NCBI RefSeq assembly: GCF_018977255.1 | Contig: NW_024704742.1 | Location: 71,116,001 to 71,180,000 of the forward strand | Reading direction: 5' to 3' | DNA length: 64,000 nt | Source: Callorhinchus milii | Taxonomy: Eukaryota | In this document: positions 1 to 37,345 of the stretch, piece after piece | How positions within the stretch are numbered: the stretch's first letter is position 1 | Layout of the letters: each line of letters begins with the position of its first letter | Translations under genes and position numbers: made by a program | The notes under the pieces: model-generated | Seen by the model: the letters and a program-made list of their open reading frames with translations, nothing else | What the model was told of the DNA's origin: nothing | The model's database searches: none

Positions 1-394
1 CATCTCATCCACTGGGGGTCAGAGGGTATTCCAAAGAAAACAATGATGATTAATGAGGAAAGTAAGCTTTTGTTTCATCTCTCAGAGGCCCGGCCTGTGA
101 GTAATTACTAAACTGATGTCCAGCCAGCCATTGAGGATTGGATAGGCTCGGTTCCACTATGGCCTGAGTTCAAACTGCTGATTGTGTTGCCCCCAATGAA
201 GACTTCTCTGCCACGGAGCCGTGCGGCTCAAGTTTCAGATAAAGTGCTTCGGTGAATGAAAAATGAAAGTCGATTCTCGTTTATCGACTGTGCGGCAGCT
301 CAACTCCCACCCCCTCCAAACCCCATCCCCCAATGCCTGAAATTGCAGGGATGCGGAGAACAACAGTGGTTCCAGGAAGATAAATAATATTAAA

Positions 395-660
395 AACACT
401 TGCATTTATATAGCACCCATCAGGCAGTGTCGCGTCCTAGAGCTCTCGACACTGGCGGAGCACGACACCGAGCCTGAGGGAGGAGATGACCATAGGCATG
501 CTTGAAATGGAAGATCTTCAGGCAAGACTTGAAGATGGGGAAGGAAGGGGCAAAGCGGAGGGATAGAGGAAGAGTGTTCCAGACTTTCAGGGTGTAATGT
601 CCAAAAGCACGGCCACCAATGATGGAATGGAGAGCATGAGGTACATGACGGAAGCCGGAC
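395..660 (-). mobile_element. L2 LINE 3' fragment (mirror ~19265-19530, +)
   Basis: Translates to IGGRAFGHYTLKVWNTLPLSLRFAPSFPIFKSCLK (L2 ORF2 C-terminus), followed by the GCTATATAAATGCAAG tail. Confidence 0.85.
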
Positions 661-922
661 GACGCCTCCAACAATGTAGTACTGCCTCCAGCACTACACT
701 GGACCATCAGCTTAGACTGTGAGCTCAAAGGCAACCTTCTAACTCAGGCGCGAGAGCTACCGACTGAGCCAGGCTGGCACACAGCCTGGGGGGAGTGGGA
801 GAGGGAAGGTTCAACACCAGAACTCTGTCAACACTGACCTGGATGATGCCACAGTAAAATGAACAAGCGAGAGGCGAGACTGAGAGGAAATACTGTATAC
901 ATGTATGTATTTTTCCCCACAG

Positions 923-1034
923 ACTAGGGCCGAAGTGGAACCAATTCAGAGAGAAAGCAGCTCACGATGTGATGATTAACATCTCTATCAAGGAGCTGGT
1001 GCTTAGGAACGGGGCCTCTAATGCATACGACAAG
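923..1034 (+). other. Candidate internal exon, product unknown (mirror 18891-19002, -)
   Basis: TTTTTCCCCACAG acceptor, a single open frame LGPKWNQFREKAAHDVMINISIKELVLRNGASNAYDK in non-repeat sequence, and an AAG|GTGCAG donor. Not recognised as a known protein. Confidence 0.22.
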
Positions 1035-1319
1035 GTGCAGACCATGGAATTACAGCATCAAAACCAGTAATAATAATCATAATCCCTTACAATTCATACA
1101 ACCCCTACAAACCTCACAACCTCCCAAAGTACTTCACAGAGTAACTATCAGGTGTAGTGACTGTGTAGCTTGCACACACCATTTTGCATACTTATTTGGG
1201 GGATTATTGGCTAGGACACCAGGAGAGAGAATCTCCCTTCTCTTTTCTAACAGCATCATGGGGGGAATTGGGATCAGTGTCAGCCTGACTCAGTCAGGAG
1301 CACTCTTTCTCCTCCAAAT

Positions 1320-1765
1320 CAACAACTTGGATTTATATAGCACACTTCACGTAAGGCCGCATCTCAGAGCGTTTAACAGTCGCAGAGCCTGACACCGAGC
1401 TGGGGGAAGGGAGGAGGTGACCCTAAGCACAGTCAAAGAGGAAGCTCTTCAGTCCTAATCTAAAAGTGGGGAAGGAGGGAGCAAGGTGGAGGGATTGAGC
1501 GAGAGAGTTCCAAAGCTCCGGGGTCTGGTGGCTAAAAGCATTGCCACCAAAGGTGGAACGAAGGGGATGAGGGACAAGCAGGAAGCTGGACCCAGCAGAG
1601 CAGAGGTAGCATGCAGTAGAGTTGAGAAGAAGCAAGTCAGAAAGGTAGGGAAATGCCAGGACGTGAGACGAGTGAGAGGATCTTGAAATTGATCCGTTCG
1701 GTAATTGGGAGCCAGTGATACCCGGCGAGGACTGATGTGATGGGGATACGGAGTTTAGTGTGGGT
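1320..1765 (-). mobile_element. L2 LINE 3' fragment (mirror ~18160-18605)
   Basis: FGGNAFSHQTPELWNSLAQSLHLAPSFPTFRLGLKSFLFD, upstream degenerate HWLP..RI.FK motif, and L2 tail. Confidence 0.85.
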
Positions 1766-1769
1766 GGTG

Positions 1770-2185
1770 GAGTCGGAAGATTGTGGGTTCAAGCCCTATG
1801 GTGGGACACTTCGCTCATGTTCAAGGCTAACATTCCAGTGCAGTGCTCGGGGGTGGGGGTTGAAGGGGGAAGTACCATATTGTTAGAGATGCCAATCTTT
1901 GGTTATGAGAGGATAATCAAAAACTAAATACCTGCTCAAGTGATGTTAAAGATCCTGTGGTGCTGTTTGAAAAGAGAAGAGAGTTTCTCTCTCATGGTAG
2001 CCAACGTGAGTGATAAAACTTGTCACTCACTTCATGGCTGTTTGTGTGACGTTCCTGTGCACAAATTGGTTGCTGCTTTCGCCTAGAAAATACAGTCACT
2101 ACATTTTACAAAAAATCCTGTGAAGTACTTTGAGAACTTTTGTCACTGTGTTGAACTGCTATATCAAATACAAGGATTATGATTA
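1770..2185 (+). mobile_element. Deu-domain SINE (SacSINE1-like)
   Basis: GAGTCGGAAGATTGTGGGTTCAAGCCC head, CAGTGCAGTGCT...GTTAAAGATCC core, CTATATCAAATACAAGGATTAT tail. Confidence 0.8.
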
Positions 2186-2231
2186 TATTTTCAATGGTTA
2201 AGGAGAGGCCTAATTGAGGTCCTTAAAATAT

Positions 2232-2597
2232 AATAATAATATAATCCTTGCATTTGATATAGCGCTTCATCACATCTCCTAGATGTCTCAAAGGGCTTCA
2301 TCGAATATATTGTTTAGAGAATTGACTGTATTTTGTGGGCAAAATGCAGCAACCAATTGCATATAGCAGTGTCCCACAAACAGTCGTGGCTTGAGTGACC
2401 AAATTTATTTTTTTGAAGGAATTATTACCCCCGGAAAGTGATCCGCCAATTGAATAACAACTGAGTTCCTACTTACTGCTAGGAATCAGAGATGTGTGGA
2501 GTAAGGAAACTTGCCTAACGTTTCGACCTGCCGGGGATTGAACCCGGGTCCTCTCGTTTGCGAGGTGACTGAGCTAACCACCATACTACAGGACTCC
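2232..2597 (-). mobile_element. Full-length tRNA-headed CORE-like SINE (left-arm version)
   Basis: Minus strand starts GGAGTCCTGTAG, has a B box (GGGTTCAATCCCC) and TTAGGCAAGTTTCCTTACTCCAC core, and ends CAAATGCAAGGATTAT(TAT)n. Confidence 0.92.
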
Positions 2598-2604
2598 AGA
2601 AAAA

Positions 2605-2760
2605 TTAGTCCATAACATGATGAGGGGCTTCCTGGGTTTGCAGGAGAAATTATTTCCATTGGTCTGTGAGTCAGTGACTAGAGGACATCAATTTAAGATA
2701 GTTAGCAAGAGAGCAAAGGGAGAGATTTTAACACATAGCGTTGTAGGGATATGGATACCC
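2605..2760 (+). mobile_element. CR1 LINE ORF2 C-terminal fragment (mirror ~17176-17331)
   Basis: MRGF..EKLFPLVCESVTRGHQFKIVSKR, containing the CR1 TRGH motif. Confidence 0.8.
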
Positions 2761-3029
2761 CAGCAGGGTCCCAATCATCTTTCAAGATGGAACTACAACA
2801 GCAACAACAAGATTACATTTGTATAGCGCCTTTTAAGTCGGGAGGACGACCCAATACCCTGGACAGTGTGCAACATTTCAGACCCAAGCTGGGGTCGGCG
2901 AGGGAGAAAGGAGGGGAGGGGAAGGGGAGTGACCGATGGCACGGTTGCAGAGGAGGGTCTTGAGATAGAGATAGATATCTAAAGAAAACCATATAAATAC
3001 TTTGTAATTAATAATGCTGTATAATACTT

Positions 3030-3443
3030 CTCTTTGATATGTCAGTTTTCATGTTAGGAGAACCTCTCAAAGCGCTTTAGAGGATTCACTGTAAAATGTA
3101 GTGATTCTATCTGTGGGTGAACATGGCAGCTAATTTGGGCATAGTGACATACCCACAAACAGCCACAAAGTTATTTTATTTGGGGATTGTTGACCATGAC
3201 ACCAGAAGAGAGAAATGACTTCTCTTTTCGGGAAGTGCCATAAGGTCTTTAACAGCCACCTGAACAGGCAGCCGGGTTTAATGTCTCATCTGAAGGATGC
3301 CACCTCCAACAATACAGCGCTTCCCCAGCACTGCATTGGAGTGTCAGCTTAGAGGATGTGATTCCAAGTCCTGACGTGGGCCTTGAACCCACAACCTTCT
3401 GACTCAGAGGCAAGAGCGTTACCACTGAGCCAGACTAACACAC
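3030..3443 (-). mobile_element. Deu-domain SINE, near full length (mirror ~16493-16905, +)
   Basis: Mirror reads GTGTGTTAGTCTGGCTCAGTGGTAACGCTCTTGCCTCTGAGTCAGAAGGTTGTGGGTTCAAG, followed by the Deu core. Confidence 0.85.
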
Positions 3444-4096
3444 AAATTTTATCTTGGTCATTGTTGATGAGGGCACTGAGAAAGAAGAAACTCCTTTCTC
3501 TTTTCACATAGGGCCGTGGGACCTTTAGCGTCCACCTGATGGGAGCTCATCAGAAGGTCTATATCTCAGACAATGCAGTGTTTCCCCCAGCACTGCATTG
3601 GAGCATCAGTCCAGACTTTCCTGAAACTCCCATCCTTGATTCCCCCCACTACACCCCCACTCCGTGCACTCCTTTATATTTTTTCTCTTATTTATCTGAA
3701 TCTCTTCCAACAATCTCTCATTGATTGTACTTAAATCCATATCCAATGCCAACACTTACTCTGGGTTCAAGCACCTCCCCCACCACCCCCATATCAGGAA
3801 CAGTCTAGACTGACTCTCCAACATGGAACAGGGAGGGAGAATGGATGGGGATAAGGTGCACTACATTGTCAGAAGCACCAACCTTCGGAAGTGACATTTG
3901 GTTGAGGCCCTGTCCGTGCATGTTCAGTTGGAAGTTAAAGATAATAATAATAATGCTTGCATTTGATATATCACCATTGAGATGTTTCAAAGCGCTTCAA
4001 AGAATATATTGTAAAGTGGATTGATTGCATATTTTGAAATATAAGAGACAATAAAGTGCTTCCCCAGCACTGCATTGAAGTGTTATAGAAGAGACA

Positions 4097-4545
4097 TCTT
4101 ATCACATCTAGGCTTGATTATGGCAACTCCCTGCTTGTTGGCCTTCCCAGCTCTTCTCTCCACAAGCTGCAGATCATCCAGATCTCTACAGCTTGTGTCC
4201 TCTCCTGCACCAGGTTCCATGACCCCATCACCCCAACCCTCGCCAGGCTCCACTGGCTCCCCATCCCTCAGAGGATAGAGTTCAAAATCCTCATCCTTGC
4301 CTTCAAGGCTCTCCACGGTCTTGCTCCTTCCTACCTTTGTGACCTGCTAACCCCATATCAACATGTCCGCCCCTCCACTCAACAGTCTCTGGCCTGCTCC
4401 ATGGTCCCCCCGCGGGGCCCCACCATTTGGAATTCCAACTCAGAGTCCCTTTGCGTCGCTCCCTCCCTTGTCTTCTTCAAGATACGTCTCAAGACTCTTC
4501 TCTTCGACTTTGCCTTCGGCCATCCTCCTCCTCCACCTCCCCCTG
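4097..4545 (+). mobile_element. L2 LINE ORF2 3' fragment (mirror ~15390-15840)
   Basis: Degenerate SRLDYGNS...LHKLQIIQ...LHWLPIPQRIEFKILILAFKALHGLAPSYL. Confidence 0.88.
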
Positions 4546-5483
4546 ATCCTATTTGAGGTATACTTTAAATGAATCGGATATATTTTGTAGGCTAAAGGTG
4601 GCAGCCAATTACACACAGCAGTATCCCACACACAGTCGTGGATTGAGTGATCTTTCACGTTGAGAAGATGTCTCATTTTGTAAATGAACGTAATAATGCT
4701 ATCAACTGCAAAGAGTGTGGTTAATATTGTATTATTGTATTAGCGTATCGCTTTCCAGAGGTAACAATCCCTCAAAAAAAATTGGTCTTTAAATCCACAA
4801 CTGTTTGTGGGACATGGCTGTGCGCAATTGGCTGCCGTGTTTCAAACCCAAAATACAGTCAATTTATGTGACAATTTTTTTTGTGAAGCGATATGAGATG
4901 TCTCAACAATGTGATAAGGTGCTATATCAAATGCAAGGATTACTATTATTGTTGTTTTGCAATCTGTCAGAGGGAGAGACAGACAACTTAAAGCCATGAG
5001 ACAGTGTCATAACATAAGAACATAAGAATTTGCTAGACAAAAGAAGACTAAGGTCCCTCCAGGTTGCTTTCCACCATCCTAGCAGTCGCTTGACATATCG
5101 TGTCCCAAACTATATACTGTATCCCGAGATATTGATTCCTAACAGAAATCTATCTAATTTGTTCTTGAAAGAATCATCATTTTTTGCTTCCACCGTCTCC
5201 CTGGTGAATTCACTTTACAGTGTATTCTGTGAAGCACTTTGTGACGTCTTAATAATGTGATAAGCGCTATATCAAATGCGAGGATTATTATTATTATACA
5301 TTCTATCAGAGACAGCTGACTGAAGACTTAAAGGCGTGAGACAGTGACATACACCTGAGTAAACAGCACAGCTAACTCACAGCAAACTATATCTGGTGAT
5401 TGAGGGGCATGGGAAACGGGAAGATGAGTTGGAGACTTATGCGGAGTAGAAATATTTCCAAGAATTTTTATTTTCTGTTGCAG

Positions 5484-5639
5484 ATAAGTCCAGTGTAACA
5501 ATGTCTGACACCAGTAAAGTCCTCATCACTCCATCCATGTTACTGAAGATGTCATCGAACATGGTGACGGATTATTATCTGCCATGAAAATGATGGCGCT
5601 CACTCACACTGATCCTCTGGACATCTAAATACAATTAAA
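5484..5639 (+). other. Candidate terminal exon, product unknown (mirror 14297-14452, -)
   Basis: TTTTTATTTTCTGTTGCAG acceptor; the only long open frame is (D)KSSVTMSDTSKVLITPSMLLKMSSNMVTDYYLP* with stop at 5585-5587; ATTAAA at 5634-5639. Confidence 0.25.
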
Positions 5640-5889
5640 CACTTGTACTGACAACAATTAAGTACTTCTATATACAGTTATCATCATTCTTCCATATGTT
5701 ATTTTGCATTTTGCCCACAAAATATATCGTAGTGTACCCTGTGAAGCGCTTTGAAACGTCTCTAAGATATGATATTGCGCTATATCAAATGCAAGGATTA
5801 TTATTATGTTTCAATTGCTAGTGCACTGTAGACAAAAACATGGGGGTAACAGGACTTTTTAACACCTTGTACCATATCTCATCCGAGTA

Positions 5890-6140
5890 ACAGCACGTCC
5901 GAAAGTGCAGATGGAACTCCATCCTGAAGTCTCTCCAGCTTGTCAACAACCTTCCCCACTTTTGAAGCCCCTTAATACCTTCCTTTTTATCAGAGCTTTT
6001 GGGGGTCACCTTTAACCATCCCCACTCTTCTGAGCTCCGCCGCGCCCCCAGCCTGGGCTGCCAGCCAACTCTGTAAAGCTCTTTGAGATCTTGCCCCAAT
6101 GTGAATTGCACTGTGTGAATCTAAAATTGTAGTTATTATT
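5890..6140 (+). mobile_element. Old L2 3' end
   Basis: ATGGAACTCCATCC...CTTAATACCTTCCTTTTT...TGTAAAGCTCTTTGAGATC tail. Confidence 0.7.
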
Positions 6141-8369
6141 GCAGGCTATCTTATAATTATCACAACTTGCTTTGGACTCACCAACAAGTGGAAACAGCCT
6201 ATCGACATCTACATAATTGGAGTGGAATGCGCACTCCCTCTCTCTCTCTCCTTGGAGGGACATATCTTGCTTCCTGAATTCCAGAGAGTATTGGGCACAG
6301 GTTGGCAACAGCCAAGGCTTGGGGGTCCCTTTGGTACAGTATGTGTAAAGGAGGAAGGAGTGAGTTGTGAGCAGGAGATCAATGATGAAACTGTGCCTGT
6401 GAACTTGTAAGGTGTTTTGTTTTTCAGCACAATCAAAGTTTAGGAAGAGACCTAAAGACCTGTGTCATCTTTTCTCCACCCCTGTTTATCCTCTCATTTT
6501 GGTGATATATGGCTCTCCCCCAGGAGGTGAGAGCTCAAACTGCAGAATGGGTCCATGAGAGACTGATATCCCATCAACACCCAAAGGTCATCCCGTCACA
6601 GACACCCAAAGACAAACCTAACAGTGGTTCAGTCAGCATTGCTCTCGCCTCTGGGTCAGAAGGTTTAAGCCCCACTTTGAGCCTTTGAGCTCATAGTCCA
6701 GACCGACCCTCTAGTGCAGTGCTTGGGGGGACACTGTATTATGGGAGGCTCTATCCTTTTGATGAAACGATAAACTGAGATCCTATCTGTGCCCTGTTCA
6801 GGTGGACGTTAAAGATCCCTCAAAATTTTCTCCCTGCTCAGACATCTCTGTGAAGTCCTGCAAGACCTAAGAAAAAAATTAATGAATTAGTTAATCTTTA
6901 TCGCGTTGTTGAGACGTCTCAAAGCACTTCACAGAATATATTGCAATGTGGATTGACTGTGTATTTAGTGGGTGAAACATGGCAGCCAATTGTGCACAGC
7001 ACTGTCCTGCAAACAGTCATGGATTGAGTAACCAAATTATTAATATATCTTTTCATTATTACCTACGATTACTAGCTCCTGAGCTCCTTGTTGGGGGAGA
7101 GAGGGGGTGGGGCAGGACAGTAAATAGAAACTACACACAGAACGAACGTCATTCAAAGTTGTATGAAATTTGTTGTCCAAATGCGTTGTTGTGAAGCTCT
7201 GAGACAACAGTAACAAGAAATGACAAGTGTGCTATCAGGAGGACATCCCAAATTCCTGGACAGTCAGGGATTTGGACCCAAGCTGGGAGATGAGATCAGG
7301 AGGGGTGGAAGGCACAGAGGGTAGGGGTAGGAGGGTGAATCAAAGGCGCTGTTAGTCATTGTGAAGCTCCAAGACGTCTGCAGGGTATGAACAACACTGT
7401 TGACATGGTGAGAGATACCTTGAGGCCTGAGCCATGGATTTGATGTCCTCCTCACTATCAAAGTGCAGTATAATAATAATCTTTATATTGGATATGGAAC
7501 CTTATCATGTCTTTGAGATGTCTCAAAGCGCTTCACAGAATATACTGTGAAGTGAATTGATTGTGTTTTGTGGGCGTTGTCCTGTCTGACATAAACAACG
7601 CTGTGTGACAAGCTTGGGCTTTTAAATAATTTATCATTTTTATTGAGGTGACATTTCAACATAAAAAACAGGAGGTGTGCGTGCAAGAGAACCGAGCGGG
7701 TGTGGGGAGGCGAGTCCTTAACATCCCCTCACTGCCCCAAACCCAGCTAAAAAGATTCAAATCACATCCCAATCCATTATCTTTTCTCGTTTGTTTGAAG
7801 ATGACTTTTTTACGTGATTTTTTTTGTGGGGCGGGGACATTAAGCATTTAATGTCTTAATAATGTCTTATCAATTTTCTGTCTTTTTTCTTTTGCTTAAA
7901 TCACTTTCCCTCTCTCTCTTTCATCTCTTTCCCCTTATTGGTGAGTGTACACCCAGCGATTGCCTTCTCTCTGCCTCTTTCTCACCATGACACAGTTTGC
8001 GAATCACACGTTTGGCTATTTTTTTGAGGCAGACCAAATGTTGAAAGCGGGATTTGCATTTGAAAGTGACTGTATGTGTGTGTGTGTGTGTGGGTGGAGG
8101 AGAGCGAAGGTTGATAGCACTGAATGGCGATGCCTGGGGTGAAGTAGTGAGACACGTGTGCAGAGAGCTACTACGAGTGATATCTTTGCTAATCTCAATG
8201 TCAGTTTAACTTCTTCACTCCCCAAGTGGAAACATTGCTATCTGTCCTGGTCTTTCGGGCTGACAAACCATTTCCCAAATTTCACATCAGCCAGAATTAG
8301 GGACAAGCCTTCAATCCACTCTTAATTAAAAAGCCGGTTTTCAAGCTTAAACTTAAGAAACCAAAATTA

Positions 8370-8800
8370 ATAATAAATAATCCTTGCATTTGATGTAACA
8401 CTTTTCACATGGGGTGGATGTTTCAAAGTACTCCACAGGAAACATTAAAAAGTGTGGTGACCATATTTTTGTAGGCAAACGCAGCTGCCAATTTGTACAC
8501 AGCAACATCCCACAAACAGGCATGGAGTGAGTGATCAATTTTCTGGCAGATTATTAGCCAGGATACCAGAAGAGAGAAACTTCCTCCTCCTTTTGAACAG
8601 CATCGCAGAGATCTTTAACGACCGCCTCAACAGGCACAAACAGGATCTTGGTTTAATGCTTCATCTGAAGGACGTCGCCTCCGACAATGCAGCACTCCTC
8701 CCAGCCCTGCACTGGAGTATCAGCCCGGACTGTGAGCTCAAAGTCACGACTTCGGGCTTGAACCACAACCTTCTGACTCTGAGGCGAAAGCACTACCGGC
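8370..8800 (-). mobile_element. Deu-domain SINE
   Basis: ATAATCCTTGCATTTGAT tail through ...AACCTTCTGACTCTGAGGCGAAAGCACTACC head. Confidence 0.85.
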
Positions 8801-9214
8801 ATGTCTTAATTGCTCCAAATGAAGAATTGTGATTAGTTCTTCACAGCTATCTCCTGTGAAAATGTTTTGACACATTTCAATCTTATCAGCAGTGTGGCAA
8901 AGACCAGGACTATTATTATTATCATTTTATATTTCAGGACAAAATGGTTCTATAAGCTAGGTCTAGGGGTAATTTTTTGGCCTAAGAAGCCTTCAAGCTA
9001 CAATAATTTACATTTATATACAGTTGTGCCTCTCACATTTGGAGGACATCTCAAAGCACTTCAGAAAAAGGGATTTCCACCATTAATAACAATAATCCTT
9101 ACATTTGATATAGCACCTTATCGGTTTGTTATGGCGTCCAGTGCATTGGGATGTCCTTCCGACTTGAAAGGCGCTATACAAATGTAAATGTGTTGTTGTT
9201 GTTGGTGTTGCTGT

Positions 9215-9562
9215 CTCAAAGTGCTTCACAGAATATACTGTAAAGTGAGTTGACTGTACATTTTATGGGCGAAATGCAACAGCTAATTGCACACAGCAGT
9301 GTCCCACAAACAGTCATCGATTGAGTGATCAAATTATTATTTTTTAAATTATTTTTTGTGGGAGAGATGATTACTCCTGGAAAGTGATCCGTCAATCTAC
9401 TAACAACTGGGTTCATACTTACTGCTTGGTAAACAACAACAACAACAACAACAACACCAACAAGATTACATTTGACAGAGACATGTAGGGTAAGGAAACT
9501 TGCCTAATATTTCGCCTCAACTGGGAATTGTGACGCAAGCACACTGACCACTGTCCTACGGA
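9215..9562 (-). mobile_element. CORE-like SINE interrupted by a short L2-type (AAC)n tail at ~9432-9475
   Basis: Family motifs GTCCCACAAACAGTC and GTAAGGAAACTTGCCTAA, with an (AAC)n + AAGATTACATTTG insert. Confidence 0.8.
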
Positions 9563-9887
9563 TTTAAGTCTTCGTATATGAGCTATAGAAAGTTCCATTG
9601 TCATTTCGTCCGCCCCCTCTCCTCTCCGCCCGCCCCCAGAATGGTCAGACAATTGAACCTTGTAAATAAAAAACCTGTAAGCGTACAGATGGGACAGATT
9701 ACCAAGCGTAAAGGACAGGTTTAAAGAGGGGCAAGAACTGAGGAACAGATGTTACAAATTCGCTCATTCATCTTTGGTGATACAGGTTCAACTGCAGGCC
9801 AGACATGGGTGTGGGTTCCTACCTCTGTCTGGGAGTTAAAGGTCAGGGGGAACAGCGCTTTGGCACCGTGAAGTCAGTTTGAGACAC

Positions 9888-10270
9888 GGGGAGAGAGAGA
9901 GAGAAAGAGAGGGAAAACCAGATGGAAAATAGAGAAAAAGGAGTAAGTGAGAGTGAGAGAAATAGAATATGAGAGGAGTGAGTGAGAGGGAGCGAGAGAA
10001 AGAAAGAATGAGTGACAGAGCGCGAGAGAGAAGAGGAAGAAAACGAGGGAGGCAGAAAATGAGAAAAAATGAGAGTAAGTGAGAGTGAGAGAAAAAGAAT
10101 GAGAGAATGAGAGGAGAGAGAAAGAGACAGAGAGAATGAGAATGAGAGAGAGAGAGAGAAAGAGAGGGAAAGAGGAAGAGAATGAGTGAGAAAAAGAAAT
10201 AAAGAGAGAGAGAGAGGACGAGAGAGAGAGAGAAAGAGACAATGAGAGAAAATATATAAAGTCAGAGTGA
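9888..10270. repeat. GA-rich polypurine low-complexity tract
   Basis: Degenerate (GA)n/GAGAAT sequence, source of the spurious Ser/Leu/Phe ORFs. Confidence 0.95.
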
Positions 10271-10499
10271 GAAATTTTATTCGGGGAATTGTTGGCCAAG
10301 ACACTGGGAAAGAGAAACTCCCTTTTCCTTTCGAATAGTGTCATAGGTTCCTTAACTTCCCACCCGAAGGACAGCGCTTCCGACAATGCAACACACCCCC
10401 AGCACTGCATTGCAGCATCTCTTTAGACTGTGTGATTTCAAGTCCCAACGTGGGCCTTGAATCCATAACCTTCTGATTCAGAGGCGAGAATGCTACCAC

Positions 10500-10858
10500 T
10501 GAATGAGATTATGTGTGTGTGTGTGAGAGAGAATGAGATTGTGTGAGTGTGTGTGAGAGAGAATGAGACTGTGTGAGTGTGAGAGAGAATGAGATTATAT
10601 GTGTGTGTGAGAGAGAATGAGATTGTGTGAGTGTGTGTGAGAGAGAATGAGACTGTGAGTGTGAGAGAGAGAATGAGATTATGTGTGTGTGAGAGAGAAT
10701 GAGATTGTATGAGTGTGTGTGAAAGAATGAGATTGTGTGTGTGTGTGAGAGAGAATGAGATTGTGTTTGTGAGTGTGTGTGAGAAAGAGAATGAGATTAT
10801 GTGAGCGTGTGTGAGAGATAATGGGACTGTGTGTGTATGAGAGAGAGAATGAGTTTAT
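10500..10858. repeat. Minisatellite, ~26-32 bp unit GAGAGAGAATGAGATT(GT)n
   Basis: About 12 tandem units. The array resumes at ~11201 after a SINE insertion. Confidence 0.92.
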
Positions 10859-10863
10859 AAATA

Positions 10864-11203
10864 AATAATAATATAATCCTTGCATTTGATATAGCGCTTC
10901 ATCACATCTCCTAGACATCTCAACGCACTTTGCAGCATATACTATAAAGTGAATTGACTGTATATTTTGTGCGCGAAATGCGGCAGCCAATTTGCGCACA
11001 ACTGTGTCCCAAAACAGTCATGGATTGAAGTGACCAAATGATTATTATTATTTTTGAAGGGATTATTACCCCGGAAAGCGATCCGCCAATCGACCAGCAA
11101 CCAGGTTCCTACTTACTGCTAGGTAAACAGAAGCGTGTGGAGTAATTAAATTTGCTTAAGGTTTCTCCCTGCCCGATAATCAAACCCGAATCCTCTCGCT
11201 TGA
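10864..11203 (-). mobile_element. CORE-like SINE inserted in the minisatellite (spacer copy)
   Basis: Tail AATCCTTGCATTTGATATAGCG, core CTACTTACTGCTAGGTAAACAG, head truncated at CCTCTCGCTTG. Confidence 0.9.
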
Positions 11204-11659
11204 GAGAATGAGATTATGTGTGTGAGTGTATGTGTGTGAGAATATGTGTGTGAGCGAGTGTGTGTGTGATTATGTGTGAGAGTGAGTGTGTGCGTCATTA
11301 AATGTGTAAGTGTGTAGCTTATAAGTAGAGAGCACTATTGTCTAACTCTGAGATCAACAAGAAACCAGTGAGATGCGTGTTACACTGAAACCACCTCAGA
11401 TCTTAACCACATTTTCCTCTCTCACAGGTGATAACATACGCTGACGGTCAGGGGGTGCAAAATAGGCAGCGCGTTTTTCCCAAGTTAGAGAGGCACTGAG
11501 ATTACACACTGAGAAAGAGACCATTAACACAGCCTGGCCAAGGGGAGAGGGAGCTGTTACCTGAATATTGGGCAGTACTATTAAATGCAAGGATTTTATT
11601 ATAATCCCAGTGAGACTGGGTAACACAACATAAACCAGAGAGACACAGTCACACAGACA

Positions 11660-11796
11660 GGCATGGGAAAAAGAGAGAAAGAGAAAAAAGGGGTGAGAGA
11701 GAATGAAAGAGTGCAAGAGGAAATAAAGATAGATAGATGTGGGAGAGAGAGAGAAAAAGATGAATAGAGAGACATTGGAAAGAGAAAGAGAGAATA

Positions 11797-11831
<35 letters not shown>

Positions 11832-12219
11832 TGTGGGGAAAAGAAAGAAAGAAAGAAAGAAAGAAAAAGGAAGGAAGGAAGGAAGGAAGAAAGAAAGAAA
11901 GAAAGAAAGAGACATAGAAAAAAGATGAGTAAATGAAGATAGAAAGAGAAGTGAAAGAGAAAGAGTGAATTAGAGAGAAAATGAGATAGATGAGAAAGGA
12001 GAGAAGATGTGAAGATCTTTTCTGGAAGACAGAGGGAGAGAAAGGCAGAAGAAAGGAAAAAAGGGCAAGAAAGAGGCCAGAGTAGAGAAAAGAGAAAAAG
12101 AGGAGTGAGTGAAGAACACATGGAGATGAAGGAAGTGTGAGAGGGGAGAAAAAACAGGGGGAAGAAGTGACAGAGAGAAAGATAAGAAAAGTCAACAAAG
12201 TACTGTAAAAGGAGGGAAA
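11660..12219. repeat. Polypurine/(TA)n/(GAAA)n/(GGAA)n tract abutting the inner breakpoint of the right arm
   Basis: Direct inspection. Confidence 0.93.
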
Positions 12220-15200
12220 TCGCCTCCCCACACCCGCTCGGTTCTCTTGCACGCACACCTCCTGTTTTTTATGTTGAAATGTCACCTCAATAAAAATGAT
12301 AAATTATTTAAAAGCCCAAGCTTGTCACACAGCGTTGTTTATGTCAGACAGGACAACGCCCACAAAACACAATCAATTCACTTCACAGTATATTCTGTGA
12401 AGCGCTTTGAGACATCTCAAAGACATGATAAGGTTCCATATCCAATATAAAGATTATTATTATACTGCACTTTGATAGTGAGGAGGACATCAAATCCATG
12501 GCTCAGGCCTCAAGGTATCTCTCACCATGTCAACAGTGTTGTTCATACCCTGCAGACGTCTTGGAGCTTCACAATAACTAACAGCGCCTTTGATTCACCC
12601 TCCTACCCCTACCCTCTGTGCCTTCCACCCCTCCTGATCTCATCTCCCAGCTTGGGTCCAAATCCCTGACTGTCCAGCAATTTGGGATGTCCTCCTGATG
12701 TGACACTTGTCATTTCTTGTTACTGTTGTCTCAGAGCTTCACAACAACGCATTTGGACAACAAATTTCATACAACTTTGAATGACGTTCGTTCTGTGTGT
12801 AGTTTCTATTTACTGTCCTGCCCCCACCCCCCTCTCTCCCCCAACAAGGAGCTCAGGAGCTAGTAATCGTAGGTAATAATGAAAAGATATATTAATAATT
12901 TGGTTACTCAATCCATGACTGTTTGCAGGACAGTGCTGTGCACAATTGGCTGCCATGTTTCACCCACTAAATACACAGTCAATCCACATTGCAATATATT
13001 CTGTGAAGTGCTTTGAGACGTCTCAACAACGCGATAAAGATTAACTAATTCATTAATTTTTTTCTTAGGTCTTGCAGGACTTCACAGAGATGTCTGAGCA
13101 GGGAGAAAATTTTGAGGGATCTTTAACGTCCACCTGAACAGGGCACAGATAGGATCTCAGTTTATCGTTTCATCAAAAGGATAGAGCCTCCCATAATACA
13201 GTGTCCCCCCAAGCACTGCACTAGAGGGTCGGTCTGGACTATGAGCTCAAAGGCTCAAAGTGGGGCTTAAACCTTCTGACCCAGAGGCGAGAGCAATGCT
13301 GACTGAACCACTGTTAGGTTTGTCTTTGGGTGTCTGTGACGGGATGACCTTTGGTGTTGATGGGATATCAGTCTCTCATGGACCCATTCTGCAGTTTGAG
13401 CTCTCACCTCCTGGGGGAGAGCCATATATCACCAAAATGAGAGGATAAACAGGGGTGGAGAAAAGATGACACAGGTCTTTAGGTCTCTTCCTAAACTTTG
13501 ATTGTGCTGAAAAACAAAACACCTTACAAGTTCACAGGCACAGTTTCATCATTGATCTCCTGCTCACAACTCACTCCTTCCTCCTTTACACATACTGTAC
13601 CAAAGGGACCCCCAAGCCTTGGCTGTTGCCAACCTGTGCCCAATACTCTCTGGAATTCAGGAAGCAAGATATGTCCCTCCAAGGAGAGAGAGAGAGGGAG
13701 TGCGCATTCCACTCCAATTATGTAGATGTCGATAGGCTGTTTCCACTTGTTGGTGAGTCCAAAGCCAGTTGTGATAATTATAAGATAGCCTGCAATAATA
13801 ACTACAATTTTAGATTCACACAGTGCAATTCACATTGGGGCAAGATCTCAAAGAGCTTTACAGAGTTGGCTGGCAGCCCAGGCTGGGGGCGCGGCGGAGC
13901 TCAGAAGAGTGGGGGATGGTTAAAGGTGACCCCCAAAAGCTCTGATAAAAAGGAAGGTATTAAGGGGCTTCAAAAGTGGGGAAGGTTGTTGACAAGCTGG
14001 AGAGACTTCAGGATGGAGTTCCATCTGCACTTTCGGACGTGCTGTTACTCGGATGAGATATGGTACAAGGTGTTAAAAAGTCCTGTTACCCCCATGTTTT
14101 TGTCTACAGTGCACTAGCAATTGAAACATAATAATAATCCTTGCATTTGATATAGCGCAATATCATATCTTCGAGACGTTTCAAAGCGCTTCACAGGGTA
14201 CACTGACGATATATTTTGTGGGCAAAATGCAAAATAACATATGGAAGAATGATGATAACTGTATATAGAAGTACTTAATTGTTGTCAGTACAAGTGTTTA
14301 ATTGTATTTAGATGTCCAGAGGATCAGTGTGAGTGAGCGCCATCATTTTCATGGCAGATAATAATCCGTCACCATGTTCGATGACATCTTCAGTAACATG
14401 GATGGAGTGATGAGGACTTTACTGGTGTCAGACATTGTTACACTGGACTTATCTGCAACAGAAAATAAAAATTCTTGGAAATATTTCTACTCCGCATAAG
14501 TCTCCAACTCATCTTCCCGTTTCCCATGCCCCTCAATCACCAGATATAGTTTGCTGTGAGTTAGCTGTGCTGTTTACTCAGGTGTATGTCACTGTCTCAC
14601 GCCTTTAAGTCTTCAGTCAGCTGTCTCTGATAGAATGTATAATAATAATAATCCTCGCATTTGATATAGCGCTTATCACATTATTAAGACGTCACAAAGT
14701 GCTTCACAGAATACACTGTAAAGTGAATTCACCAGGGAGACGGTGGAAGCAAAAAATGATGATTCTTTCAAGAACAAATTAGATAGATTTCTGTTAGGAA
14801 TCAATATCTCGGGATACAGTATATAGTTTGGGACACGATATGTCAAGCGACTGCTAGGATGGTGGAAAGCAACCTGGAGGGACCTTAGTCTTCTTTTGTC
14901 TAGCAAATTCTTATGTTCTTATGTTATGACACTGTCTCATGGCTTTAAGTTGTCTGTCTCTCCCTCTGACAGATTGCAAAACAACAATAATAGTAATCCT
15001 TGCATTTGATATAGCACCTTATCACATTGTTGAGACATCTCATATCGCTTCACAAAAAAAATTGTCACATAAATTGACTGTATTTTGGGTTTGAAACACG
15101 GCAGCCAATTGCGCACAGCCATGTCCCACAAACAGTTGTGGATTTAAAGACCAATTTTTTTTGAGGGATTGTTACCTCTGGAAAGCGATACGCTAATACA

Positions 15201-18200
15201 ATAATACAATATTAACCACACTCTTTGCAGTTGATAGCATTATTACGTTCATTTACAAAATGAGACATCTTCTCAACGTGAAAGATCACTCAATCCACGA
15301 CTGTGTGTGGGACACTGCTGTGTGTAATTGGCTGCCACCTTTAGCCTACAAAATATATCCGATTCATTTAAAGTATACCTCAAATAGGATCAGGGGGAGG
15401 TGGAGGAGGAGGATGGCCGAAGGCAAAGTCGAAGAGAAGAGTCTTGAGACGTATCTTGAAGAAGACAAGGGAGGGAGCGACGCAAAGGGACTCTGAGTTG
15501 GAATTCCAAATGGTGGGGCCCCGCGGGGGGACCATGGAGCAGGCCAGAGACTGTTGAGTGGAGGGGCGGACATGTTGATATGGGGTTAGCAGGTCACAAA
15601 GGTAGGAAGGAGCAAGACCGTGGAGAGCCTTGAAGGCAAGGATGAGGATTTTGAACTCTATCCTCTGAGGGATGGGGAGCCAGTGGAGCCTGGCGAGGGT
15701 TGGGGTGATGGGGTCATGGAACCTGGTGCAGGAGAGGACACAAGCTGTAGAGATCTGGATGATCTGCAGCTTGTGGAGAGAAGAGCTGGGAAGGCCAACA
15801 AGCAGGGAGTTGCCATAATCAAGCCTAGATGTGATAAGATGTCTCTTCTATAACACTTCAATGCAGTGCTGGGGAAGCACTTTATTGTCTCTTATATTTC
15901 AAAATATGCAATCAATCCACTTTACAATATATTCTTTGAAGCGCTTTGAAACATCTCAATGGTGATATATCAAATGCAAGCATTATTATTATTATCTTTA
16001 ACTTCCAACTGAACATGCACGGACAGGGCCTCAACCAAATGTCACTTCCGAAGGTTGGTGCTTCTGACAATGTAGTGCACCTTATCCCCATCCATTCTCC
16101 CTCCCTGTTCCATGTTGGAGAGTCAGTCTAGACTGTTCCTGATATGGGGGTGGTGGGGGAGGTGCTTGAACCCAGAGTAAGTGTTGGCATTGGATATGGA
16201 TTTAAGTACAATCAATGAGAGATTGTTGGAAGAGATTCAGATAAATAAGAGAAAAAATATAAAGGAGTGCACGGAGTGGGGGTGTAGTGGGGGGAATCAA
16301 GGATGGGAGTTTCAGGAAAGTCTGGACTGATGCTCCAATGCAGTGCTGGGGGAAACACTGCATTGTCTGAGATATAGACCTTCTGATGAGCTCCCATCAG
16401 GTGGACGCTAAAGGTCCCACGGCCCTATGTGAAAAGAGAAAGGAGTTTCTTCTTTCTCAGTGCCCTCATCAACAATGACCAAGATAAAATTTGTGTGTTA
16501 GTCTGGCTCAGTGGTAACGCTCTTGCCTCTGAGTCAGAAGGTTGTGGGTTCAAGGCCCACGTCAGGACTTGGAATCACATCCTCTAAGCTGACACTCCAA
16601 TGCAGTGCTGGGGAAGCGCTGTATTGTTGGAGGTGGCATCCTTCAGATGAGACATTAAACCCGGCTGCCTGTTCAGGTGGCTGTTAAAGACCTTATGGCA
16701 CTTCCCGAAAAGAGAAGTCATTTCTCTCTTCTGGTGTCATGGTCAACAATCCCCAAATAAAATAACTTTGTGGCTGTTTGTGGGTATGTCACTATGCCCA
16801 AATTAGCTGCCATGTTCACCCACAGATAGAATCACTACATTTTACAGTGAATCCTCTAAAGCGCTTTGAGAGGTTCTCCTAACATGAAAACTGACATATC
16901 AAAGAGAAGTATTATACAGCATTATTAATTACAAAGTATTTATATGGTTTTCTTTAGATATCTATCTCTATCTCAAGACCCTCCTCTGCAACCGTGCCAT
17001 CGGTCACTCCCCTTCCCCTCCCCTCCTTTCTCCCTCGCCGACCCCAGCTTGGGTCTGAAATGTTGCACACTGTCCAGGGTATTGGGTCGTCCTCCCGACT
17101 TAAAAGGCGCTATACAAATGTAATCTTGTTGTTGCTGTTGTAGTTCCATCTTGAAAGATGATTGGGACCCTGCTGGGGTATCCATATCCCTACAACGCTA
17201 TGTGTTAAAATCTCTCCCTTTGCTCTCTTGCTAACTATCTTAAATTGATGTCCTCTAGTCACTGACTCACAGACCAATGGAAATAATTTCTCCTGCAAAC
17301 CCAGGAAGCCCCTCATCATGTTATGGACTAATTTTTCTGGAGTCCTGTAGCATAGTAGTTAGGGCACTCGTCTCGCGAGGACCCGGGTTCGATTCCCAGA
17401 TGGGGCGAAACCTTAGACAATTTTCCTTACTCCACATGTCTCTATTTACCTAGCAGTAAGTAGGAACCCAGTTGTTAGTCAATTGACGGATTGGTTTCAG
17501 AGGGTAATAATCCCTTCAAAAAAAAATAATATTAATTTGGTCACTCAATCCATGACTGTTTGTGGGACACAGCTGTGCGCAATTGGATGCTGTGTTTTGC
17601 CCACAAATGCTTACAATATATTCTGTGAAGCGCTTTGAGACATCTCAATGAAGTGATAAGCTATATCAAATGCAAGGATTATTATTATTATTATATTTTA
17701 AGGACCTCAATTAGGCCTCTCCTTAACCATTGAAAATATAATCATAATCCTTGTATTTGATATAGCAGTTCAACACAGTGACAAAAGTTCTCAAAGTACT
17801 TCACAGGATTTTATTGTAAAATGTAGTGACTGTATTTTCTAGGCGAAAGCAGCAACCAATTTGTGCACAGGAACGTCACACAAACAGCCATGAAGTGAGT
17901 GACAAGTTTTATCACTCACGTTGGCTACCATGAGAGAGAAACTCTCTTCTCTTTTCAAACAGCACCACAGGATCTTTAACATCACTTGAGCAGGTATTTA
18001 GTTTTTGATTATCCTCTCATAACCAAAGATTGGCATCTCTAACAATATGGTACTTCCCCCTTCAACCCCCACCCCCGAGCACTGCACTGGAATGTTAGCC
18101 TTGAACATGAGCGAAGTGTCCCACCATAGGGCTTGAACCCACAATCTTCCGACTCCACCACCCACACTAAACTCCGTATCCCCATCACATCAGTCCTCGC

Positions 18201-19925
18201 CGGGTATCACTGGCTCCCAATTACCGAACGGATCAATTTCAAGATCCTCTCACTCGTCTCACGTCCTGGCATTTCCCTACCTTTCTGACTTGCTTCTTCT
18301 CAACTCTACTGCATGCTACCTCTGCTCTGCTGGGTCCAGCTTCCTGCTTGTCCCTCATCCCCTTCGTTCCACCTTTGGTGGCAATGCTTTTAGCCACCAG
18401 ACCCCGGAGCTTTGGAACTCTCTCGCTCAATCCCTCCACCTTGCTCCCTCCTTCCCCACTTTTAGATTAGGACTGAAGAGCTTCCTCTTTGACTGTGCTT
18501 AGGGTCACCTCCTCCCTTCCCCCAGCTCGGTGTCAGGCTCTGCGACTGTTAAACGCTCTGAGATGCGGCCTTACGTGAAGTGTGCTATATAAATCCAAGT
18601 TGTTGATTTGGAGGAGAAAGAGTGCTCCTGACTGAGTCAGGCTGACACTGATCCCAATTCCCCCCATGATGCTGTTAGAAAAGAGAAGGGAGATTCTCTC
18701 TCCTGGTGTCCTAGCCAATAATCCCCCAAATAAGTATGCAAAATGGTGTGTGCAAGCTACACAGTCACTACACCTGATAGTTACTCTGTGAAGTACTTTG
18801 GGAGGTTGTGAGGTTTGTAGGGGTTGTATGAATTGTAAGGGATTATGATTATTATTACTGGTTTTGATGCTGTAATTCCATGGTCTGCACCTTGTCGTAT
18901 GCATTAGAGGCCCCGTTCCTAAGCACCAGCTCCTTGATAGAGATGTTAATCATCACATCGTGAGCTGCTTTCTCTCTGAATTGGTTCCACTTCGGCCCTA
19001 GTCTGTGGGGAAAATATACATACATGTATACAGTATTTCCTCTCAGTCTCGCCTCTCGCTTGTTCATTTTACTGTGGCATCATCCAGGTCAGTGTTGACA
19101 GAGTTCTGGTGTTGAACCTTCCCTCTCCCACTCCCCCCAGGCTGTGTGCCAGCCTGGCTCAGTCGGTAGCTCTCGCGCCTGAGTTAGAAGGTTGCCTTTG
19201 AGCTCACAGTCTAAGCTGATGGTCCAGTGTAGTGCTGGAGGCAGTACTACATTGTTGGAGGCGTCGTCCGGCTTCCGTCATGTACCTCATGCTCTCCATT
19301 CCATCATTGGTGGCCGTGCTTTTGGACATTACACCCTGAAAGTCTGGAACACTCTTCCTCTATCCCTCCGCTTTGCCCCTTCCTTCCCCATCTTCAAGTC
19401 TTGCCTGAAGATCTTCCATTTCAAGCATGCCTATGGTCATCTCCTCCCTCAGGCTCGGTGTCGTGCTCCGCCAGTGTCGAGAGCTCTAGGACGCGACACT
19501 GCCTGATGGGTGCTATATAAATGCAAGTGTTTTTAATATTATTTATCTTCCTGGAACCACTGTTGTTCTCCGCATCCCTGCAATTTCAGGCATTGGGGGA
19601 TGGGGTTTGGAGGGGGTGGGAGTTGAGCTGCCGCACAGTCGATAAACGAGAATCGACTTTCATTTTTCATTCACCGAAGCACTTTATCTGAAACTTGAGC
19701 CGCACGGCTCCGTGGCAGAGAAGTCTTCATTGGGGGCAACACAATCAGCAGTTTGAACTCAGGCCATAGTGGAACCGAGCCTATCCAATCCTCAATGGCT
19801 GGCTGGACATCAGTTTAGTAATTACTCACAGGCCGGGCCTCTGAGAGATGAAACAAAAGCTTACTTTCCTCATTAATCATCATTGTTTTCTTTGGAATAC
19901 CCTCTGACCCCCAGTGGATGAGATG
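12220..19925 (-). repeat. Right arm of large inverted duplication
   Basis: Starts TCGCCTCCCCACACCCGCTCGG (reverse complement of 7692-7713). Position 19925 pairs with window position 1, so the arm may extend further right. Confidence 0.98.
17339..17693 (+). mobile_element. Full-length tRNA-headed CORE-like SINE (right-arm version, different copy sequence)
   Basis: Same family and same insertion point as 2232-2597, but the internal sequence 17351-17659 is strongly diverged from it. Confidence 0.92.
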
Positions 19926-20552: not shown

Positions 20553-20636
20553 GTGTTATTATATAATATACAGTTATAGCCAGTAACACACAGTGTGTTA
20601 TTATATAATATACAGTTATAGCCAGTAACACACGGT
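20553..20636. repeat. 42-bp tandem duplication GTGTTATTATATAATATACAGTTATAGCCAGTAACACACAGT
   Basis: Two adjacent copies, with a related remnant at ~21945-21970 on the far side of the CR1. Confidence 0.9.
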
Positions 20637-20639
20637 ACA

Positions 20640-21933
20640 TTATTAGCTAGATTTGCTGATGACATCAAGTTGGGGGAAACAGTGAAACCATGGGAAGCAA
20701 ATAATAATAATCCTTTCATTTGATGCAGTGTCTTATAAAATTGACATGTCTCAAAGCTCTTCACAGAATATACTGTAAAATGAAATAACTGTATATTTTG
20801 TGGTTGAAATGTATTATTACTATTAAACATTGTTATGAAATGCATTATTATTAAGTAAAGTCTTACAAAGAGAGCTTGATAAGTTTTGCACATGGCTGAT
20901 AACTGGCAAATGAAATTGAATGCAAATAACTAAGGTACTACATACAGAAAGTAAGAATAGGAAACATATTTACTCCATGGATAATAATATTCCCAACATT
21001 TGATCCGACACCTTTCACATCAGGAGGATGTCTCAAACATTTCACAGGACACACTGAAAAGTGTAGTGACTGTGTACTTTGTAAGCAAAAGTGGCAGCCC
21101 ATTTGCTTACAGCTAGGTCCCCAAAACAGCCATGAAGTGAACAACCAGTTCTTATTTGTGGGAATTTGATAGCCAGGACATCGGAAGAAACACTTTTCTC
21201 TTTTCGAATAGTGCAATGAATCTTTAACATCCACCTGAACAGGCACAGATGTGCCCTTGATTTAACATCTCATCCAAAGGACGGCACCTCCAATAATGCA
21301 ACACCCCCCAGCACCTTACTGGAGTGTCAGCGTAGACTATATGAGTTCAAAATCCCCAAATGGGGCTTGAACCCACAATCTTCTGACTCAGAGACAAGAG
21401 CTTTAATAACTGAGCCAGGGATAAAATTTGCTAAGGAGGAGCTGAGAGAGATCCCAGGGTGTTAGTTGACTCGTCGCTCACTGTGTCACAGGGACAGTGC
21501 AGAAGAAAGTAACGAGGCTGACCCCCAATGTTAGAGAAATGAGCTGTGAGCAACAATTAGACAAACTAGGGCTCTTGAGACAAGATGACTCAGAGGGGCC
21601 TTATCCAGATATATAACATTATAAGTGGGATTGAAAAAGTAAACCCAGATCAATACTTTCAGATGCATCAAGACAGTAGAACAAGATGAGACAGGTTTAG
21701 AGATGTAAATGGGCAATTTCAGGAAAGACGCCAGGAAGTATTTCTTTACCCAGAGGGGAATTAATGACTGGAACAGGGTTACTAGGAAGGGGGTGTTCAG
21801 ACCAAGATACTAGGACTCGTTTAAAAAGCAGCTCGATGCTGTAATAGGGATGGTTGGGAGGGTGTTCTGGAGGGATGAGATCAGATGAGCCAAAGGGTCT
21901 TCTTTATCCAATGTCAATCTTGTGCTCTTGTGA
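20640..21933 (+). mobile_element. Degenerate CR1 LINE (RT to 3' end) with nested SINEs at ~20700-20810 and ~20983-21418 (both -)
   Basis: FADDIKLG (RT motif), LQRELDK..W.DNWQMK, ERD.GVLVD-like segment, RKYFFTQR, and 3' tail ATCTTGTGCTCTTGTGAT. Confidence 0.88.
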
Positions 21934-25699: not shown

Positions 25700-25978
25700 G
25701 CACTGAAGCTCTCTACTCTAATCCATTCCCTACACGTTCCTCCCATCGTGTCTGTGCTGGTGCTCGCTCTCCCACTGGAATTCTCCACTGTAATCCCATT
25801 CCCCTGCTCGTTCCCCATCGTGTCTATGCTGGCTCGCTCCCCCACTGGAATTCTCTACTGTAATCCCATTCCGCTGCTCGTTCCCCATCGTATCTGTGCT
25901 GGTACTCGCTCCCCAGCTGAAGCTTTCTACTCTAGTCCCTTTCCCTTGCTCTTTCCTCACATCATGCCTATGCTGGTG
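25700..25978. repeat. Minisatellite, ~70-72 bp unit, ~4 copies, CR1-3'UTR related
   Basis: CCCACTGGAATTCTC at 25771 and 25841; CCCATCGTGTCTGTGCTGG-type motif recurs. Attached to a CR1 tail on the minus strand at ~25635-25700. Confidence 0.85.
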
Positions 25979-26177
25979 AAATTATTAAATATAATTTAAA
26001 AAATAAATCCCTTCATGTCCTGGCACTCCCTACCTCTCCGACCTGCTTACTCCCTAACCCACGACCCATTGCCTCTACTTGACTGGCTACGGTCTCCTAC
26101 TTGTCTGTGCCCTCCATTCCATCATCTATATGTGTATTGAAAATGTGGTCCGCCACTGTCACTGTCACTGTCACTGT

Positions 26178-28147: not shown

Positions 28148-28457
28148 AATAATAATAATAATAATCCTTGCATTTGATATAGTGCTTTTTCTCGACGTCT
28201 CAAAGGGCTTCACAGAATAGACTGTAAAGTGAATTGACTGGATATTTGTGGCGAAACGCGGCAGCTATTGCGCACAGTAGTGTCCCATAAACAGTCATGG
28301 ATTGAAAATGACCAATTTATTATTGTTTTGTTTTGGAGGGATTATTATTAGGTGTGTGGAGTAAGGAAACTTGCCCAAGCTTCGCCCTGCCTGGAATTGA
28401 ACCCAGGTAACTCGCTTGCAAGGCGAGTGCTCTAACCACTGAGCTACATGACTCCAC
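28148..28457 (-). mobile_element. CORE-like SINE with internal deletion
   Basis: Tail at 28148 and head ...CTAACCACTGAGCTACATGACTCC. Confidence 0.88.
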
Positions 28458-30655: not shown

Positions 30656-30694
30656 TCCCCGCATGTCAAATGACCAGCTGGTGACTACCATCCT

Positions 30695-37159: not shown

Positions 37160-37345
37160 TCTTCAACCGTGCCTTCACCTCCCCTTTCGACTCTCTGCCC
37201 CCTCCTCGCTCCCTCCCTTCCCTGCCCTCACCCTGACCATTTCCCCACTGCTCGGGTCCCGACCCAACTGTCCAGTGCTTTGGGACGTCCTCCCGACATG
37301 AAAGGCGCTCTATAAATGCAATCTTGTTGTTGTTGTTGTTGTTGT
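37160..37345 (+). mobile_element. L2 3' tail (same subfamily as 26178-27303) inserted in a CR1-derived minisatellite unit
   Basis: Close match to 27117-27300 with (TTG)n tail. Flanks CCCATCGTGTCTGTACT / GTACTGGTGCTCACTTCCCCACTGGAG. Confidence 0.9.

Follow-up and report, generated by a model that had tools for sequence, protein, structure and literature searches.

Can one member of a repeat family take the place of another at the same chromosomal site, with the surrounding sequence left as it was? A stretch of 64,000 nt from the elephant shark Callorhinchus milii (contig NW_024704742.1, positions 71,116,001 to 71,180,000; 'the window' in what follows) appears to hold such a case. The window begins with a large inverted repeat. 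Both of its arms carry a short interspersed element (SINE) at the same site, in flanks that are 99.8% alike, and yet the two elements, A in the left arm and B in the right, differ as unrelated copies do. Whether this swap took place in the animal or in the assembly is the question addressed here. All things considered, the swap is somewhat more likely to be an assembly product than a real overwriting of one element by another.

Two different elements at one site

The elements, and the short head that they have in common, are laid out as follows:

2229..2600, minus strand: SINE copy A, full length and mosaic, its head, of tRNA-Ala type, at 2600 and its (TTA)n tail near 2229
17336..17694, plus strand: SINE copy B, with private deletions of 6 and 15 nt
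2586..2600, minus strand: head common to A and B, 15 nt, exact; the replaced tract would end inside it

The head, TCTGGAGTCCTGTAG, is the same to the letter in both arms (2586–2600 and 17336–17350). Beyond it the bodies, 2264–2585 in A and 17659–17351 in B, part company: 46 of 298 aligned bases are mismatched (15.4%), and 10 indel events spread over 35 gap columns bring identity down to 75.7% over 333 columns. The longest identical run within the bodies is 19 nt, and a further 23 nt is shared at the tail core. A first-pass annotation of this DNA had marked out the same dense patch of differences and had likened it to the divergence between unrelated copies, and global alignment bears it out on both points. 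It had also held that site, flanks and both ends were shared. This is right for the site and for the head, but the tail junction is not quite the same, for a one-base indel within the (TTA)n tail (2240/17683) separates A from B.

Measured against the consensus of the other 17 copies, A diverges by 12.1% and B by 10.6%; all 19 copies that could be aligned in the window range from 6.9 to 18.2%. CpG changes number 15 in A and 13 in B, and both elements look single and old. They are separate copies: A retains the 6-nt and 15-nt consensus segments that are missing from B, and neither body is derivable from the other, whether by mutation or by read error.

Could A and B descend from one insertion all the same? 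They would if the palindrome were ancient and had been homogenized by arm-to-arm conversion that skipped this SINE. The two share 10 non-consensus sites, which is rank 4 among the 158 pairs (those sharing at least 200 columns among the 19 aligned copies), and their likeness over ungapped columns, 84.1%, takes rank 154 of 158, above most pairs in the window. Of the 10 shared sites, however, six are CpG, three recur in other copies and one is private and adjoins B's deletion, and all are interleaved with differences. A tree of the 16 longest copies does not group A with B and has no supported branch. We read the shared sites as common decay, or as the mark of a subfamily, and not as descent from one insertion. 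Every other repeat in the arms is uniform, moreover, and an old palindrome should occur in other fish. This origin seems to us very improbable.

A is a mosaic

Between the arms lies a unique spacer, and in the spacer lies a truncated SINE of the same family that bears directly on the makeup of A:

2232..2283, minus strand: 3' end of A, 52 nt, equal to the tail of the spacer SINE, the two having in common five non-consensus bases and an indel of one base in the tail
2284..2585, minus strand: body of A, its source copy probably outside the window; no copy in the window exceeds 91% in any of five segments
10859..11206, minus strand: spacer SINE (c10859), 5'-truncated, of the same family, in A's orientation and inverted to B; tail common with A

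The last 52 nt of A (2232–2283) are identical to the tail of this spacer SINE (10864–10915), 8.6 kb away. Among 171 pairs this is the longest exact match (median 21, next 44). All six informative columns in the block join A with the spacer copy, three of the five non-consensus bases are absent from every other aligned copy, and the tail indel at 2240 is common to the two. Even if that indel could be put down to coincidental consensus error, the identical block would still be 43 nt long. A comparison of 820 pairs from 41 tails, with right-arm mirrors other than B left out, gives the same picture: A and the spacer copy are the only pair to agree throughout the 23 nt that lead up to the conserved tail core, and the next best exact run is 12 nt. 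That core, with its (TTA)n, is present in 48 tails. A subfamily as the origin of the shared tail was considered and rejected, since no other tail among the 41 carries it.

The remaining 302 nt of A are another matter. No donor for the body was found among the copies in the window, where the longest exact match to another member of the family is 25 nt. The tract runs from the 15-nt head into the (TTA)n tail, and A must therefore have at least two sources. Sequence from other SINE copies, then, has been placed at this site, and the spacer SINE is one of them. The original proposal, that one SINE body was overwritten from another copy, survives to the extent that foreign SINE sequence is present and that a source can be named for its last 52 nt; the single donor finds no support, and neither does a tract that stops short of the tail.

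Two sites in the tail, 124 and 126, are linked among the 19 aligned copies (p=0.003), and the two linked tail types hint at two subfamilies in the window. For the direction of transfer such subfamily-linked sites offer little: one CpG site weakly favours movement from the spacer copy to A, and is not decisive.

If separate insertions had hit the same base twice, once on each of two copies of the locus or of two haplotypes, unrelated bodies at one position would be accounted for. But both copies are old and CpG-decayed, yet their flanks are almost identical; start base and tail end are the same; and the 52-nt match would be left unexplained. We give this even less credence than descent from a single insertion.

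The arms and their joint

BLAST comparison of the window with itself yields a single inverted match of 7,729 columns, 1–7713 against 19925–12220, with the following layout:

1..7713, no strand: left arm, an inverted copy of 12220–19925, cut by the window start
7713..7714, no strand: joint of left arm and spacer, with at most 1 nt of microhomology and no N; a contig of run X13 departs there
7714..12219, no strand: spacer, unique in the self-comparison, 4,506 nt
12220..19925, no strand: right arm, which continues past 19925, has the alleles of other runs at five indel sites and is without one C at 13355

The left arm has its far end outside the window, in which there is no N at all.

The first-pass annotation had taken the arms to be otherwise identical. 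They are not: outside the SINE, global alignment finds 12 scattered differences in 7,367 nt, or 1.6 per kb. Six are indel sites (910, 2111, 5730, 6019, 6580 and 7107) and six are substitution events (4623, 5763, 6168, 7231–7233, 7255 and 7357). The left arm is short by one base at 910, 2111, 5730 and 6019, and by two at 7107; at 4623, 5730 and 5763 its alleles depart from the family consensus. Five of the 12 differences fall in repeats, against 55% expected, and none of the 12 left-arm alleles has a 13-mer match elsewhere in the window. Immediately next to the swapped tract the arms agree without exception for 2,037 nt (2586–4622 and 17350–15314). The differences cluster toward the spacer (Kolmogorov–Smirnov [KS] p=0.0045; substitution events near the joint, KS p=0.019): 10 of the 12, including all six substitution events, lie within 4623–7357, in the 3.1 kb closest to it. 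Such clustering would suit either divergence close to the breakpoint of an inversion or the poor end of a read.

A comparison with Pfam of the 143 frames of at least 50 aa in the non-repeat parts of 7714–64000 brought out no coding sequence in the vicinity: none of the 143 reaches the cut-off, and one gives a match below it. No functional effect of the swap is therefore in view. Just outside the mirrored part, at 20553–20645, there is a near-perfect tandem duplication of 42 nt.

What other sequencing runs contain

Contigs of four runs (X13, X14, X15 and X1) out of 23, possibly from other individuals, were placed on positions 1–9850 at 90% likeness. Repeat contigs swamped the placement (about 260,000–290,000 per large run), and the findings are those among the contigs listed.

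At all six indel sites the longer allele occurs in a listed contig; the arm that it contradicts is the left one at five sites, which is the pattern expected of consensus errors, and the right one at 6580. At 910 this is an A in X13 and X15, and an extra T in X14; there is one extra letter at 2111 (X1) and at 5730 (X14, X15), the place of the gap being taken from lengths; the longer allele appears at 6019 in X13 and X15, at 7107 in X14, and at 6580, where the right arm is short, in X13 and X14. Contigs across 4623 and 6168 each differ by one letter, at a place that is not listed. The left arm is probably a non-native, less accurate copy.

One contig of run X13 (822 nt, depth 8.7) tests the joint. 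It matches 7713–8397 without a difference and departs from the window at 7713, the arm boundary, its other 137 letters being unlike the left arm. Depths in X13, among the contigs listed, are 4.8–9.35 for five arm contigs and 6.5–8.8 for three spacer contigs; in the quiet bins 1–329 and 9542–9850 they are 12.5 and 10.6 (X13), 11.4 and 7.9 (X14) and 12.9 and 12.1 (X15), though contig depth, the tool warns, is no copy number. The arms had been thought a real pair of paralogs, and hence a built-in control for the swap. A contig that leaves at the joint, and arm depth close to spacer depth, speak against this.

In X14 there is a contig whose last matching position is precisely 7230, next to the arm difference at 7231–7233 and where the window has no repeat match. 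This single contig end is perhaps a fork between segregating alleles, a weak indication.

As for A itself, a run search with 2000–2900 returned 23 runs, 16 of which hold some words of the query. The highest shares of its 90 words, 0.54, 0.44, 0.43 and 0.40, belong to four samples from a single study. The query shares 0.536 of its words with the right arm, and 0.025 more occur in the spacer copy. Such shares fit the absence of A, but weakly, because variants within repeats tend to be lost from contigs. No evidence comes from the 12 runs whose shares are below 0.2; X1 is one of these, and a flank contig accounts for its share. In none of the four runs placed does a listed contig lie over 2182–2679, which, given the swamping by repeats, says nothing on A or B.

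One locus, probably assembled twice

What the data contain is a swap, a tail of mosaic origin, left-arm alleles that look like errors and one contig that does not follow the joint. To account for them we lean, by a modest measure, toward one locus assembled twice, its SINE overwritten in a local consensus; the likelihoods given to this and to all other readings are judgements, not computed. The palindrome would be one single-copy locus that the assembly wrote out twice, and its left arm would be a less polished extension, or gap fill, joined at the start of the spacer. Reads of a second haplotype, one with the spacer inverted, may have seeded the extension. The joint at 7713/7714 is the very joint that an inversion of the spacer creates, and a heterozygous inversion of 4.5 kb could therefore break a contig and seed a false copy. 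The consensus of the extension would then be made from a small local pool of reads, among them reads that lack the arm and align there through SINE homology only. At the arm's one full-length SINE, such reads may then have outvoted the true copy, B. The outcome, A, would take its body from a copy that lies a little beyond the window and its tail from the spacer copy.

Gap filling or contig-end consensus, then, may be the cause of the swap. A published long-read assembly of the species, from which the window may come, lists FALCON, Pilon, HiRise and PBJelly, and error-corrected reads for the last (PMC8302630). PBJelly is described as building a consensus locally from the reads that support a gap and splicing it into the draft (PMC3504050), and in a benchmark with simulated reads its fills averaged 89–95% identity to the truth (10.1101/2021.02.26.432990). 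The replaced tract spans the element end to end, as local alignment would have it; among 52 reconstructed Alu cases 14 were complete (PMC8230782). That study also reports apparent Alu conversions that proved to be assembly errors: of 12 in a gorilla assembly, five were present in a second gorilla, and those confined to the first were all lost on reassembly (PMC8230782).

Short-read polishing, the artefact that the first-pass annotation had itself named, was considered and set aside as unlikely. When Pilon reassembles a locality, it starts at trusted flanks and proceeds by 47-mers (PMC4237348). Between A and B the shared stretches are 15 nt at the head, 23 nt at the tail core and at most 19 nt inside, with no 47-mer path between the two, and a many-copy pile-up would sit near the consensus, from which A is 12.1% removed.

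A published parallel is with the false duplications, heterotype and homotype, of Ko et al. (2022, PMC9516828), which this locus resembles in its adjacent near-identical copy, its arm depth, close to that of the spacer in the contigs of other runs, its private error-like words and a joint that the single contig bearing on it does not support. Of four marks by which such duplications are known, two are found here, the lack of support at the joint and the error-like words, with the longer allele in another run at all five left-arm deletion sites outside the SINE; the mark of a gap is wanting. The word 'inverted', too, is absent from the main text of that paper.

Several points weigh against assembly as the cause. 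The joint has no N, whereas false duplications are most often separated by gaps (PMC9516828). A resembles one genuine old copy and not a pile-up, its 12.1% lying beside a family mean of 12.6%. The other repeats of the arm are intact, as the 2,037-nt exact run attests. The source of the tail lies 3.1 kb into the spacer, where reads should align by the spacer, so that an extra assumption is needed; for a tail derived from the spacer, biology is a better account than a consensus route, and neighbours within about 10 kb are the partners favoured when Alu conversion is real (as cited in PMC8230782). Little weight can be put on the word shares, with no listed contig over the element, and the test of the joint is one contig of one run. 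The runs, finally, may represent other individuals, in which case a private but real variant would look alike.

Possible conversion or template switching in the animal

Real conversion or template switching, in whatever form, we put at somewhat less than an even chance. A still less likely course, though one to be reckoned with, is that a chimaera haplotype had a full-length, long-dead SINE rewritten end to end from two other old copies only about 80% alike, one of them at a distance of 7–9 kb, by a repair event that also inverted or duplicated the kilobases next to it. Whole-SINE replacement is rare—detectable Alu replacements number three in 544,034 on the human branch (PMC8230782)—and its occurrence in an arm that is suspect on other grounds therefore asks for a common cause, be it an assembly step or one complex repair event.

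Doubtful, but with some points in its favour, is the idea that the arms are two haplotypes of one locus, falsely duplicated, and that the difference between A and B is a real allelic one. Ectopic gene conversion, or template switching during repair, would have replaced the SINE on a haplotype that is probably inverted for the spacer, the path leading from the head of B to another copy, on to the spacer copy, and back in the (TTA)n tail. Alternatively, A would be the older, with a tail from earlier local conversion with the spacer copy, and B the replacement. The exceptional 52-nt match with a neighbour 8.6 kb off is what one would look for; six substitution events in 7.4 kb, gathered near the joint, fit allelic divergence; the contig end at 7230, a single and weak sign, is expected of an allele fork; and the switching of templates between repeats that are highly diverged is robust in yeast (PMC4215184). 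Set against these are the rarity of such events in an arm already in need of a common cause, the word shares, which in no run exceed that of the flanks, and the reported optimum for conversion of 89–100% identity (PMC8230782), where A and B are about 76–84% alike.

Less probable again is the picture drawn in the first-pass annotation, a real, young and rare inverted duplication. The left arm would stem from error-prone break-induced replication or from template switching, and its SINE would have been replaced from other copies during or after synthesis of the arm. One event would then cover the duplication, the scattered changes and the swap. The joint is blunt and without N, a local donor for the tail lies in the spacer, and the left arm looks derived because its alleles at 4623, 5730 and 5763 are off the family consensus. 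But the X13 contig does not follow the joint and depth is not doubled in X13–X15; half of the events outside the SINE are losses of single bases, and the right arm has one as well (6580), a pattern more in keeping with errors of consensus than with mutation; and three switches between copies 16–24% diverged would, we think, be unusual for one event in a vertebrate germline.

How does the locus compare with accepted cases? In Alu–Alu conversion (Doronina et al. 2021, PMC8230782), a different element likewise occupies the same position within the same flanks, partial conversions yield hybrids and some loci were converted more than once (three cases), much as A is mosaic, partners lie within about 10 kb, and some apparent cases are assembly errors. 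Of the features by which that study recognizes conversion, the shared site with homologous flanks is present here, as is a difference beyond mutation; a near-identical donor with other flanks is found for the last 52 nt of A, and none in the window for 2284–2585. Here, unlike there, the copies are only about 76–84% alike, the comparison is within one assembly and not across species, and A is known from that assembly alone, whereas the Alu study had two data sources for control (PMC8230782). Template switching in break-induced replication (Anand et al. 2014, PMC4215184), with its serial jumps between homeologous repeats by way of short identities, would give a mosaic of this kind; the yeast work, however, started from an induced break, and nothing here shows a break or synthesis. 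A literature search turned up no case of SINE replacement in fish among the matches listed, judged by title and the start of the abstract, most subscription papers being outside its scope.

The SINE family and its neighbours

The element is a SINE of about 360 nt whose head is tRNA-Ala-like and whose tail is (TTA)n. ARAGORN recognizes a tRNA-Ala in four sister copies and a tRNA-Val in a fifth; it makes no call on A or B, which align to those heads. Rfam gives five matches, all tRNA-like. The ARAGORN and Rfam calls coincide with SINE heads, at 28383–28452, 32368–32439, 49908–49979, 53586–53659, 54725–54796 and 59085–59143. In its tRNA-Ala-like head, its high density and its divergence of about 12% the element resembles CmiSINE (SINE2-1_CM and SINE2B-1_CM) of C. 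milii (PMC5499810), a match by description. CmiSINE is reported at 302,861 copies, with a mean divergence of 12.6% for SINE2-1_CM, and the main text of that paper does not contain the term 'gene conversion' (PMC5499810).

The least diverged copy in the window, at 49601–49990, is 6.9% from consensus. A compound GA/GT microsatellite array with a 28-nt period (10501–11312) flanks the spacer SINE at 10859–11206 on both sides. A second SINE in the spacer, 9084–9528, is in three pieces, with an 89-nt insert near the tail and an (AAC)n-containing insert at about 9436–9474, and copies 46520–46952 and 63302–63553 have tandem double tail units. Other repeats are present as well. Open frames in a repeat family occur at 4089–4556, 15380–15847, 26058–27190 and 30043–30684, and these we take to resemble the C-termini of L2 reverse transcriptases. 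A younger trio of repeats (27111–27302, 37157–37345 and 56249–56392) is 88–93% alike over 150–190 nt, and a 70-nt unit is repeated in tandem 3.7 times at 25710–25978, with a related two-copy array 21 kb off at 47284–47425.

What the swap would mean

If the swap is an assembly product, it is a warning that whole-element 'conversions' and palindromes, as read from a single long-read assembly, can arise together at a contig end or gap fill. Artefacts of this sort are convincing because the sequence swapped in is that of a real copy. If the swap is real, it is a known process, ectopic conversion of the Alu type, in a new lineage. It would extend copy replacement to the cartilaginous fish, at an identity below the usual optimum, and it would bear on the use of SINEs as presence/absence markers and on the dating of copies by their divergence. 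Were it, further, the work of a repair event that inverted or duplicated its surroundings, it would be a natural instance, in a vertebrate other than a mammal, of template switching in series between short repeats that are strongly diverged, and it would mean that SINE copies stay repair templates long after the activity of their family has peaked.

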